A DNA stretch of 15,816 nt, taken from IMG/VR virus record IMGVR_UViG_2917408641_000001; one strand, 5' to 3'. The position numbers were made by a program. The first letter of the stretch is position 1, and every line of letters begins with the position of its first letter. The DNA is from a virus (lineage: Duplodnaviria; Heunggongvirae; Uroviricota; Caudoviricetes). Positions 12,001-15,000 of the stretch are shown in pieces.

Positions 12001-15000
12001 CTTCAGTAGCTGGTTAAACATGTTGGTAAGTGGATTGCCGCACCCGAACGGCATCGGGTTTATCTGGTAAGAAAAGCGACCGCCTGTTTTGCGCTCTTTT
12101 CTTATGACTGAACCGCTGCGCCAGAGTCGGCGTAACTCCGCATTAATGGCTGTGGTTGGGGTATTCAGTGCTGCGGCGATTTCTCCACCGCTACACCCCG
12201 GATTGGCGGCGATATAGTCCAGAATGGTCATCTGCGTGACTCCTGTACCTGTCGGATAAGGTTCACCCGCACCACATTCGTGGCGCAGAAGTAAGTGCCG
12301 TCAGTGAGATAGATGTGATGTGCATCCTTTTCTGAACGGTGTTTGTCGATTGTGGTAATCAGGCGTTCGTCGACTTCGTATTCACGCCCTCTGGAGGTAA
12401 AACGAACGACAGGAAAATGCTTAATTGCCATTACGCCTCCTTGGCGTGTGCGAATACCTCCGCGAATGCGGATTGTTTTTACATTTTCTTATTTAACCTG
12501 TGGTTTTATTTGCTCTGTTATTCGCCAGTGAAAAAGCGTTCAATCTTTTTTATTGAATGAATAATTCGCATAATCCCAATGGCGCAGGCCACCGAAATAA
12601 TCAGAACAAGCCATGAGATAAATATACTCATGCGATATTCCCCAGCTTATACGGTTCAATATGTTCCCCGCATTCTGCGGCACAGATCAGCTCGGAAAGT
12701 TCGTTAAGTGCATCCAGAGCATCAGCGTAAAAAGCCACGTCATACAGACTCCGGATTGCCCTGGTCAATGAGTCACGGGCTGCACGTTCAGCATGAGCGC
12801 CTGATGCGCTTAAGCGAAAATAAAAACGCTCAAGTGCTTTGTTAATGAGAGTTTTATATTCTTTGCCCATCACAACGCCCTTTAATCTGCTTTCTTAATT
12901 TCAACTTCTGAATCCATACAAATAATTTCGATATAGGGTTCATCGCCATTAGCCTGGCGCGCTTTTTCAGCTTTGCTAATGATTTCTCGTACGGTCTGGT
13001 ACGGAAGTTCCACAAGCAGTCGCGTGCCGTTCAGATAAACGTAAGTGGCTTCGTCGGCTCCGTTTTTACCCGCCGGAGCCACTCCATCAATAGCGGATGT
13101 GCGTAATAACAGTTCACCGCGAAAATCAATAAAACGGATAAATACACCTTGTGCATGGTCTTTGGTCATAAAGCACCTGTTATAAATCAGCCTGTTTAAT
13201 AAAACTTTGTCCGCGAAGCAGACGATCAACCGTGCGTAGTGCTTCGTATAATGTGAAATCCTGCCCGAACTGATTGTCGCCGCTGCTTAGAGCAAAAATG
13301 CGGTTTCCAGTAAACGGATTGCGTGGGCATTTGTGGACCACGATTCCAGCTTTCTCAATCAGCCAGGCATGCTCGCCGATTTGTTTTACTGGGTAGCCAT
13401 CCGGCGTTGCGTGTGTATCACTCAGGCTGTAGCGGATGTTGCTGCGTGATGCACTGGTAGTGAAACGGTTAGCGTGACGTTCAGCACCATTACGAAAGCG
13501 TGAATTACGTTGTTGTTTCATGTTAAAGACTCTGTACAGATTTAATTATTCCGGCATAGCGGCCGAACTCAAAATATTTGCGATTAAATCGCATCGCATT
13601 GTTTTCACGTTTTGCGGACTGCTGGTTCATTTTCGTTTGCCTCCGCACATGAGAATTACGCCGCTTAAGAGGTAACCGAAGTTAATTGATAGTATTACAA
13701 TTAACATAAGGTCCAATTTGTCCATGCCACACATAATTACCCTCATTGCAGTAGTTGTGGTTTATCAGGTTTCTCACCCGATAAACCAGATAACAAACGC
13801 TATAAACATCGCCCCAATAGCTGCCGGGAAAAGCCCTTTGGTATAAGCGGCGATATATTCAATGCTGAGTTCAATAAAGCGTTCTTCATGTCCCGTTAAC
13901 TTACGAAACAAATAGATCGCTATTACGCCTATCTCAATAAAAACAAGGGTCAGAATGGCGCTGATGATATGGCTGGTCATTTATGACTAAAGCCCCAGCC
14001 ACAACAACCATGCATCGCGGCGTTCTTTCGGTTGCTCAAAAAACGCTTTGCGCATGCCTTCGTTAAATGCTGGCAGATATACCCAGTTTTCTGATGCACG
14101 CGTCTTTACTGAACCTGGTTTCACAAAGTCAATTGTCGGTAGCTTTGCTGCGTCAATCATGGTTCTGACTGTGGATTCCTTGCGGCCGATCATCTTGGCG
14201 AATAGTTGATATGGCACCGCTTCAAGTGGATATGGTGCTACCTGAATGAAGCCCCCAAGCTCTGATTCGCTCATTGTGGTAATCTCCCTAATTCGTTCGA
14301 ATGGCTCAAAATGGCTTATATCGGCTTATTTGAGTGTTTTTATGTTTGTGCCCGATGTGGCATGTTGTGATGGAGGATATGCCCGATATGGCATCTTTAT
14401 CAAGCATGGGTGAAAAATTTCGCCTGATTCGTGAAGCAGAAGGTATGACCCGCCAGGAGTTTGCGGATTGTGTTGGGTTGCCTTATGGGACGGTAACTAA
14501 CTATGAGGTGAGGGGGAAGCAAGTAACAGAGGGTGCCTTACTTAAGGTTACGAAACACCCTAAATTTAAGAAATATGCTTATTGGTTATCAACAGATGAA
14601 ACGATGCCGGAGGTTGGGCAAATTTCTCCGGCTCTCTCTCTTGATGGTTCCTGCAATTCGGAGGGAGATCGTGTTTCAACCGAAACAATCCAAAAATTAT
14701 CCCGCTGAGGCCAGAAAACTGGTTAGACCTGCTTTTTGTCTGGTCTGATTATTGCTGGAAAGAGGCTGGAGAAATTGTAGAGCGGTTCATTGGAGGGCTT
14801 CGCAATGTCGATTAAGAAGCTCGAAGATGGTCGTTATTTGCTGGACATCAGGCCGAACGGACGCAAGGGAAAGCGCGTGCGTAAGGTATTTGACAAAAAA
14901 TCGGTAGCGGTGGCCACTGAACGCTACATCATGGCGAACGCTGAAAAGCGGGAATATATACAGGGCTACCGTGATCGTCGAACGCTAAATGATTTGCTTG

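Follow-up and report, generated by a model that had tools for sequence, protein, structure and literature searches.

Introduction

Coliphages make small proteins early in lytic growth that act on host division or replication, among them lambda Kil, P1 Icd, T7 gp0.4 and the Fil and Dhr proteins of phage 186, a relative within the P2 family; those named here are not known to be other than soluble. Here we describe three small open reading frames (ORFs), which we call H, B and p37, in the early region of an Escherichia coli prophage represented by IMG/VR record IMGVR_UViG_2917408641_000001, a 15,816-nucleotide stretch of Caudoviricetes DNA referred to below as the window. Like the proteins just named, H, B and p37 are products of small genes in a coliphage early lytic operon; unlike them, H and p37 are predicted membrane peptides, and no homology between the two groups was detected.

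Two classes of single-span peptide invite comparison with H. Pf3 coat-type peptides span the membrane once in an N-out/C-in orientation and depend on YidC for insertion. H is similar to these in its short acidic N-tail, single transmembrane (TM) helix and basic C-tail, and in falling within the same size range of 35–44 amino acids (aa), but it has no sequence homology to them and is an early-operon product rather than a virion protein. The type I toxins Hok, LdrD (35 aa) and TisB also have one TM helix and a basic C-terminus and are of similar length. Those toxins differ from the genes described here, which appear to be translationally coupled inside a long operon and have no antisense RNA, stand-alone locus or family match. 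A third class, the injection-blocking proteins T4 Imm, HK97 gp15 and P22 SieA, shares with H and p37 small size and the inner-membrane location predicted for these two. Its members are, however, larger and multi-TM and show no homology to our peptides. The T4 imm gene, too, is expressed early. Temperate phages as a rule express their exclusion genes from the prophage; H, B and p37, by contrast, lie in an operon expected to be repressed there.

With respect to translation, Huber et al. in 2019 reportedly described termination–reinitiation coupling at ATGA and TAATG junctions. The junctions at our locus likewise consist of a stop/start overlap or a 1-nt gap, in an arrangement kept in relatives; they differ in that B carries a strong Shine–Dalgarno (SD) sequence.

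Intergenic small ORFs under purifying selection are numerous in enterobacteria and are thought to act mostly through protein–protein interaction (PMC11188072). The unannotated ones of the Entero67K micro-proteome, found through the ratio of non-synonymous to synonymous substitution rates (dN/dS), have 15–70 codons, are often hydrophobic or disordered, lack a Pfam domain and are suggested to work via their neighbours or partners (PMC11188072). H and B fit this description exactly, but are distinguished by being phage early-operon genes with conserved SD sequences and ATGA junctions.

Coding status of H, B and p37

H, B and p37 lie on the minus strand of the window (Table 1), where the gene order is cox, orf68, H, B, DUF4761, orf95, DUF4754, p37, orf67 and a winged helix–turn–helix (HTH) gene, continuing with an Ead/Ea22-like gene, a C4/isrK RNA region, two small ORFs and gpA. 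The original prediction, made from the window alone, had listed a 37-aa, a 35-aa hydrophobic and a 35-aa basic peptide, and its coordinates and properties for all of them proved correct; the 68-aa two-helix membrane protein that it placed nearby is orf68, which does have two hydrophobic segments. It had further proposed that the frames are genuinely coding, and the synonymous-site comparison in homologues, described below, bears this out by revealing constraint on all three.

Table 1. Features of the early region of the window, with the three small ORFs first
Feature	Coordinates	Strand	Properties
H, 35 aa, MCGMDKLDLMLIVILSINFGYLLSGVILMCGGKRK	13734..13627	-	predicted single-pass membrane peptide; best 19-aa hydropathy window 2.26
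SD of H, GAGGG	13740..13744	-	5 nt upstream of ATG 13734
B, 35 aa, MNQQSAKRENNAMRFNRKYFEFGRYAGIIKSVQSL	13630..13523	-	basic, net charge +5
SD of B, GGAGG	13640..13644	-	inside H coding sequence; -9.5 kcal/mol, second strongest SD of the operon
p37, 37 aa, MSIFISWLVLIISVACAIGIMRIIHSIKKIERFFTGE	12631..12518	-	predicted N-terminally anchored membrane peptide; best 19-aa hydropathy window 2.68
SD of p37, GGGG	12643..12640	-	-5.5 kcal/mol
DUF4761 gene, 113 aa	13180..13521	-	downstream of B
DUF4754 gene	12628..12870	-	Pfam PF15946, E 4.2e-53; directly upstream of p37
orf68, two-TM small membrane protein	13980..13774	-	phrog_14475; hydrophobic segments at residues 5-23 and 50-68
cox	14274..13987	-	Pfam Phage_Cox, E 1.3e-22; first gene of Pe early operon
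HTH repressor	14334..14708	+	Pfam HTH_3; divergent from cox
Integrase	from 14989	+	Pfam Phage_integrase
gpA replication initiator	10396..7883	-	Pfam Phage_GPA, E 1.6e-129

Related loci were drawn from IMG/VR, metagenomes, GenBank phages and E. coli genomes. Among them H occurs as three divergent sequence types, that of the window, that of locus L066 and that of loci L117, L118 and L140, which differ from one another at 34–35 of 108 nt (~33%). All three types consist of exactly 35 codons with the same start, a stop within the ATGA of the next gene and an equally spaced SD. The dN/dS ratio, calculated by the method of Nei and Gojobori, is 0.23–0.28 in frame as against 0.6–4 in the other frames (Fisher p 0.0008–0.0025). 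When random mutation was simulated at equal density, the H ORF stayed open in 3% of trials, and the observed amino acid identity was reached with p ~1e-4. The peptide opens with the acidic tail MCGxDKxDL, continues into a TM segment in which S16, N18, F19 and G20 are invariant, and closes with a C-terminal K-R/Q-K anchor, which reads KRK in the window.

The SD of H forms an anti-SD duplex of -6.1 kcal/mol, a strength of -6 or lower being found at 8.7% of background positions, and in relatives the SD is AAGGAG, at identical spacing despite the differing sequence. Relatives do not keep the in-frame ATG that lies upstream at 13746, which also lacks an SD (+0.6). At the other end, the ATGA junction at the H stop is kept in all 66 copies of H. 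On the opposite strand, a 51-aa ATG-initiated ORF (13520–13675, plus strand) overlaps B and the last part of H; the substitution pattern fits the minus-strand frames instead, and the boundaries of this ORF are not conserved, since its stop in the window is absent from the other H types.

Over codons 1–27 of B, where synonymous sites are saturated, dN/dS is 0.12–0.26 in frame and about 1 when the other frames are read. The B sequences of the window and L066, two lineages in which B is unfused and has the same tail frame, differ at 14.2 of 15.2 synonymous and 18.8 of 65.8 non-synonymous sites (p 5e-6; p <5e-5 by random-mutation simulation). In a third context, designated L154-type and described below, the corresponding figures for the B core are 7 of 9.2 and 6 of 32.8.

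The p37 frame is present in 84 of 85 related loci. Its 45 nucleotide alleles have a polymorphism ratio, pN/pS, of 0.37 in frame and of 1.0–1.3 out of frame, and variable sites are distributed 16/9/25 over the three codon positions, a third-position bias. The overlap of its start with the DUF4754 stop is kept in all 61 distinct p37 alleles recovered. The C-tail of the peptide is basic and amphipathic. PGAP annotates p37 (WP_000021656.1), and in phage P88 it is labelled 'membrane protein'. We conclude that p37 is a core early gene of Xuanwuvirus.

In each of the three frames, therefore, synonymous change is in excess specifically in the proposed reading frame, the wrong frames giving values of ~0.6–4. 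These patterns show that the Pe early lytic operon contains p37, H and B as protein-coding micro-genes, each under purifying selection, and we regard it as very probable that all three are translated. The competing view, that H and B are chance ORFs in a non-coding spacer or that what is conserved in the region is some RNA or DNA element, is largely refuted and would now be most surprising. RefSeq/PGAP calls neither gene, and among dinucleotide shuffles of the 252-nt gap between orf68 and DUF4761, 3.2% contain two or more ATG-initiated ORFs that are 30 aa or longer and in 1.4% coverage is 80% or higher, so that the chance test by itself is suggestive; it is the comparative evidence that makes the coding case for H and B decisive. 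Retention of ORF length, start, stop and SD at ~33% divergence (p ~1e-4) speaks against chance, as does the frame-specific substitution pattern. A 13-bp hairpin spanning the orf68 stop (13759–13787, minus strand; z = -2.7) could be taken as a sign of a structured element, but it is probably not functional because the commonest haplotype of the relatives breaks it without compensation, and Rfam is empty at this locus.

The original prediction had also noted that two of the ORFs start on an ATGA overlap with the upstream stop. Both overlaps are real (13630..13627 for H and B; 12631..12628 for DUF4754 and p37) and are kept in every relative examined. Two further ATGA overlaps, at 12231..12228 between orf67 and the winged-HTH gene and at 11989..11986 between the latter and orf99, show that such junctions are a general trait of this operon and not peculiar to the tiny ORFs.

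B and its relationship to DUF4761

Comparison of B with related sequences shows that it is a member of a family of small basic proteins with the core FRRxYFxNGRYAGxVK[ST]; with alternative residues given, the family core carried by B is RF(N/R)R(K/N/S)YFx(F/N)GRYAGx(I/V)K. Stand-alone ORFs with this core are of 48 aa in locus L047 and 62 aa in L066. In the L154-type context, which belongs to a different P2-like phage, an ORF of 49–55 aa carrying the core is the first after Pe, lies upstream of cox and is convergent with a BssS-like reverse gene, as in L066. Elsewhere the core is fused in frame to DUF4761 to give a protein of 152 aa, as in Shae_phiSM; this form is found in 13 related viral loci and in a protein cluster of 1217 members (P0009). 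B and DUF4761 are kept apart in the window by a TAA stop and a change of frame, so that B is not a contiguous in-frame extension of the latter, and the tail differs from that of the fused form by a 1-nt indel. B is a free-standing version of the module that is found joined to DUF4761 in sister phages, a relationship that the original prediction had overlooked.

The frame of the tail offers a clue to the direction of this change. The stand-alone frame, ending xVK[ST], is common to the window, L066 and the distant L154-type ORF, the last of which is not adjacent to DUF4761. The agreement between the L154-type tail and those of the window and L066 suggests that the free peptide is the ancestral state, from which fusion to DUF4761 was derived. 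In an AlphaFold model of the fused protein, residues 1–68 are disordered, with a predicted local distance difference test (pLDDT) score below 50 in the B region, and are followed by a confidently predicted β-sheet-plus-helix domain, for which a neighbour was looked for in the PDB and none found. The ribosome-binding region of B and its first seven codons (MNKQQRN) are common with the start of DUF4761 in the simplest relatives. An origin of B by internal duplication of the DUF4761 N-terminus was considered and rejected, as similarity beyond these seven codons is not significant (p = 0.4).

The B stop codon lies 1 nt before the DUF4761 start (TAACATG, 13525..13519), and the SD of DUF4761 is weak, with an anti-SD duplex of -2.4 kcal/mol. 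DUF4761 is probably translated in a manner coupled to B termination, by termination–reinitiation, with the translation of B feeding that of DUF4761. Stop/start junctions are kept in relatives, and the downstream genes differ in the strength of their SDs (-2.4, -9.5 and -5.5 kcal/mol for DUF4761, B and p37, respectively); since B has a strong SD of its own, coupling may matter mainly for DUF4761 and p37.

This arrangement gives rise to a different account, in which B is no functional peptide in the window but a DUF4761 N-terminal extension severed by a 1-nt indel and kept open as a leader ORF, its strong SD and its stop beside the DUF4761 ATG being needed for DUF4761 to be translated. The in-frame fusions in the 13 viral loci and the P0009 cluster, the single-nucleotide difference in the tail and the contrast in SD strength between B and DUF4761 are all as this account would have them, and so are the pattern of B polymorphism within the window-type lineage and the existence of degenerate alleles, to which we return below. 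It is harder to reconcile with the tail frame common to the three stand-alone contexts, which suggests that the free form came first, and with a dN/dS well below 1 at saturated synonymous sites between two unfused lineages. A pure coupling ORF would not conserve its amino acid sequence, and the conserved residues of B speak against one. We consider the leader-ORF account unlikely, if the most serious of the competitors. Our preferred reading, that B is a peptide selected as such, would make B a cytoplasmic partner of DUF4761, supplied in trans in contrast to the cis arrangement of sister phages, while its translation also brings ribosomes to the DUF4761 start. The chances that B works with DUF4761 in this way seem to us evenly balanced.

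An accessory pair in a variable slot

Lying together in a variable slot that separates orf68 from DUF4761, H and B form an accessory pair, a further point that the original prediction had overlooked. A motif check places orf68 upstream of H in 57 of the 66 H copies; in three the region is cut off by contig ends and six fail the motif, among them L066, where orf68 is divergent, and L144, where a gene is annotated at that position. In P88, cox is followed directly by DUF4761, with no orf68, H or B, which identifies p37 as core and the other three genes as accessory.

The slot takes several forms. DUF4761 may follow orf68 directly (L061) or after a short spacer (Chuche); H alone may intervene, leading into DUF4761 through an ATGA (L117, L118, L140); and H and B may both be present, as in the window type (52 loci). 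Alternatively, B is fused in frame to DUF4761, as in Shae_phiSM and the other loci of that form. L066 carries H, its 62-aa B and a reverse-strand BssS-like gene, L047 its 48-aa B and a reverse-strand gene of 229 aa, and L051 an insertion sequence (IS) upstream of H.

The slot between orf68 and DUF4761 is thus a cargo site in relatives. In L047 the cargo consists of the 229-aa reverse-strand ORF and one of 69 aa (1823–2512, minus strand, and 2262–2471, plus strand). The BssS-like gene, of ~78–92 aa and matching Pfam BssS at E 0.023, lies at 2165–2557 (minus strand) in L066 and 9929–10207 (plus strand) in L154, a different P2-like phage, where it again neighbours a B-family ORF that precedes cox. 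Neither the two L047 ORFs nor the reverse ORF of L066 has a match in PADLOC or NCBIfam.

Proposed roles at the inner membrane

Family searches of Pfam, PHROGs, NCBIfam and PADLOC at E values up to 10 returned nothing for H, B or p37. They gave no specific support to the roles raised in the original prediction, namely host killing, superinfection exclusion and division inhibition. A DUF1146 (PF06612) label on a third-party annotation record of a 39-aa form of H was followed up and discarded, hmmscan at E up to 10 being empty for the 35-aa and 39-aa forms alike. A literature search for DUF4761, DUF4754, the accession numbers and the P88 early genes yielded no papers.

The features of the peptides nevertheless allow a mode of action to be proposed. 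H would insert N-out/C-in in the manner of Pf3 coat, by virtue of its acidic 9-residue N-tail, single TM helix and KRK cytoplasmic anchor, and p37 would be N-anchored with its basic amphipathic tail in the cytoplasm. Within minutes of the onset of lytic growth, the products H, p37 and orf68 might then serve as small modulators in the inner membrane, their TM helices packing against a larger membrane protein of host or phage. The invariant Ser16-x-Asn18-Phe-Gly20 face of H could mediate such packing, and orf68, which is immediately upstream of H wherever that stretch could be checked, would be the obvious phage-encoded candidate for its partner. The outcome would be host takeover rather than lysogenic conversion. 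We put this forward tentatively, as a role for H, p37 and orf68 that falls somewhat short of an even chance.

The size of H, its single TM helix and its basic C-terminus are also typical of membrane-damaging toxins, and H, possibly with p37, could be pictured as oligomerising like Hok, LdrD, TisB or holins so as to depolarise and kill the host. The TM segment has a conserved polar face of Asn, Ser and Gly, and some prophage copies have frameshifts or an IS upstream of H; both would be in keeping with such an activity. Antisense RNAs and toxin-family matches were, however, looked for at the locus and none found, and H, which lies outside the lysis cassette, is translated like any other gene within a long early operon and precedes the genes for replication; depolarisation so early would harm the phage's own replication. 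We therefore judge a killing role improbable. Two specific candidates of this kind were rejected. A type I toxin–antitoxin system would be operon-internal here, with no antisense RNA in Rfam, no convincing plus-strand promoter/terminator pair and no Pfam or NCBIfam match. A holin or antiholin was set aside because the genes belong to the early operon, with cox on one side and gpA on the other, and not to a lysis cassette beside an endolysin. Rfam detected no antisense RNA at 12500–14000, its only matches in the window being C4/isrK at 11424–11621 and a sub-threshold sok match at 4836–4992, and a promoter/terminator scan gave nothing above shuffle expectation for an independent transcription unit or an antisense RNA.

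Small inner-membrane proteins are, on the other hand, the usual agents of injection block, and H and B are accessory genes in a slot that also takes reverse-strand cargo genes and IS elements. The small membrane proteins might accordingly be exclusion or defence factors that block DNA entry by superinfecting phage, in the manner of T4 Imm, HK97 gp15 or P22 Sie. Against this, PADLOC reports no families, p37 is a core gene and not cargo, and the genes share the orientation of the Pe operon and appear to be translationally coupled within it; the promoter scan found no convincing internal promoter there. The C repressor is expected to silence this operon, and H, B and p37 with it, in the lysogen, which argues against classic exclusion expressed from the prophage. 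Exclusion seems to us just as improbable as toxicity.

The reading that we prefer, of H, B and p37 as selected micro-genes of the Pe operon with the proposed roles at the membrane and with DUF4761, is on balance the best explanation, and we hold it with moderate confidence. Several observations weigh against it. Neither orf68 nor H nor B is essential to the phage, H being missing from 22 of 84 orf68-bearing loci and P88 doing without all three. Within the window-type lineage, polymorphism in B amounts to four non-synonymous changes to one synonymous, including R24L/S at a residue invariant elsewhere, and this pattern is compatible with relaxed constraint on B there; frameshifted or broken B alleles also exist. 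The divergent H set comprises three sequence types only, and the dN/dS values rest on 35 codons. No family, defence-system or structural match was found, and the topology and binding partners proposed here are predictions from sequence rules.

A bolder version of this reading would make H and B a mobile micro-gene pair, in which H, perhaps with orf68, disables a specific inner-membrane machine of the host, for division, transport or DNA entry, while B is a modular, disordered basic peptide that works in trans or fused to DUF4761 and travels with reverse-strand cargo. We think this rather unlikely.

Distribution and annotation

A 2.9-kb region of the window around the three genes was compared with 5426 complete E. 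coli genomes. Matches to it, adjoining pdxB, occur in 1389 of these, with identity of up to 98.9%. The segment that carries H and B is present in 235 (~4%), always at 95% identity or more, and the L066 type was found in two further genomes. A tblastn search of GenBank phages located H and p37 only in Xuanwuvirus and gave no match to the L154-type homologue of B. A DNA pattern for H had no matches among 185,579 species-representative genomes, a result that applies to this pattern. A scan of the same collection with a B alignment gave 103 pattern matches, none of which passed the tblastn cut-off; with a query of 35 aa, this says little.

PGAP/RefSeq annotates orf68 and p37 and leaves H and B blank, while in the RAST-annotated phages PhiR44_2 and P88_4B11 both are called as hypothetical proteins. 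A protein-database search with concatenated H and B recovered only three odd alleles, and one with the 40-aa N-terminus of the fused form a single protein. The word index of the database is poor for sequences so short, and exact look-up later showed the peptides to be in the collection: p37, H and B are present in GenBank and UniRef as hypothetical proteins, from at least 1000 public contigs. All three are uncharacterised phage micro-proteins, of which p37 is already annotated and H and B are under-annotated.

The surrounding prophage

The 2.9-kb region is 97.7–98.5% identical in nucleotide sequence to phages PhiR44_2 and Xuanwuvirus P88_4B11. The window has the early-operon organisation of the P2 family (Peduoviridae; Xuanwuvirus, P88-like), with cox first, a divergent repressor and an integrase, and gpA downstream on the same strand. 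The position of cox as first gene of the Pe operon fixes the identity and direction of the operon. We conclude that the window contains the regulatory and early end of a P88-like (Xuanwuvirus, P2-family) E. coli prophage.

Several other features of the window were recorded. Between orf99 and the small ORFs upstream of gpA, Rfam identifies, within 11424–11634 on the minus strand, a full-length C4 antisense RNA (RF01695, 80.2 bits, 11424–11511), isrK (RF01394, 64.1 bits, 11547–11621) and a weak match to the c4 a1/b1 target (11582–11634). This region looks like a control module of the P1 immI type (c4-icd-ant-like) embedded in a P2-family early operon. Directly downstream of gpA, at 6471–7749 on the minus strand, are a plasmid-type ParM actin-like segregation gene (E 3.5e-82) and a Plasmid_stab_B partner. 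Beyond these, IS1 transposase and IS3-family (HTH_Tnp_1 and rve) ORFs interrupt the region at 3888–6195 on the plus strand, and the sub-threshold sok-like match noted above (25.7 bits, E 0.024) lies on the minus strand. At the far end of the window, a 470-aa DUF4116-repeat protein (1786–3198, minus strand) and a 331-aa ORF with a weak GemA-like match (1–996, minus strand) may be cargo of the variable end of the prophage.

Significance

At present the value of these findings lies in annotation and evolution, not in mechanism. Standard annotation by PGAP/RefSeq misses two genes, H and B, that are under selection. The slot between orf68 and DUF4761 amounts to a natural experiment, in which a 27-residue basic module occurs free, fused or chimeric and in which a 35-aa membrane peptide has been inserted with the junctions for translational coupling perfectly preserved. 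Were the mobile-pair version of our reading true, the locus would provide a tractable example of gene fission and fusion, and of host takeover by micro-proteins, in P2-family phages. If the peptides do act on membrane functions of the host, they would enlarge the still small group of phage micro-proteins that have been characterised and may reveal new vulnerable targets in the host.

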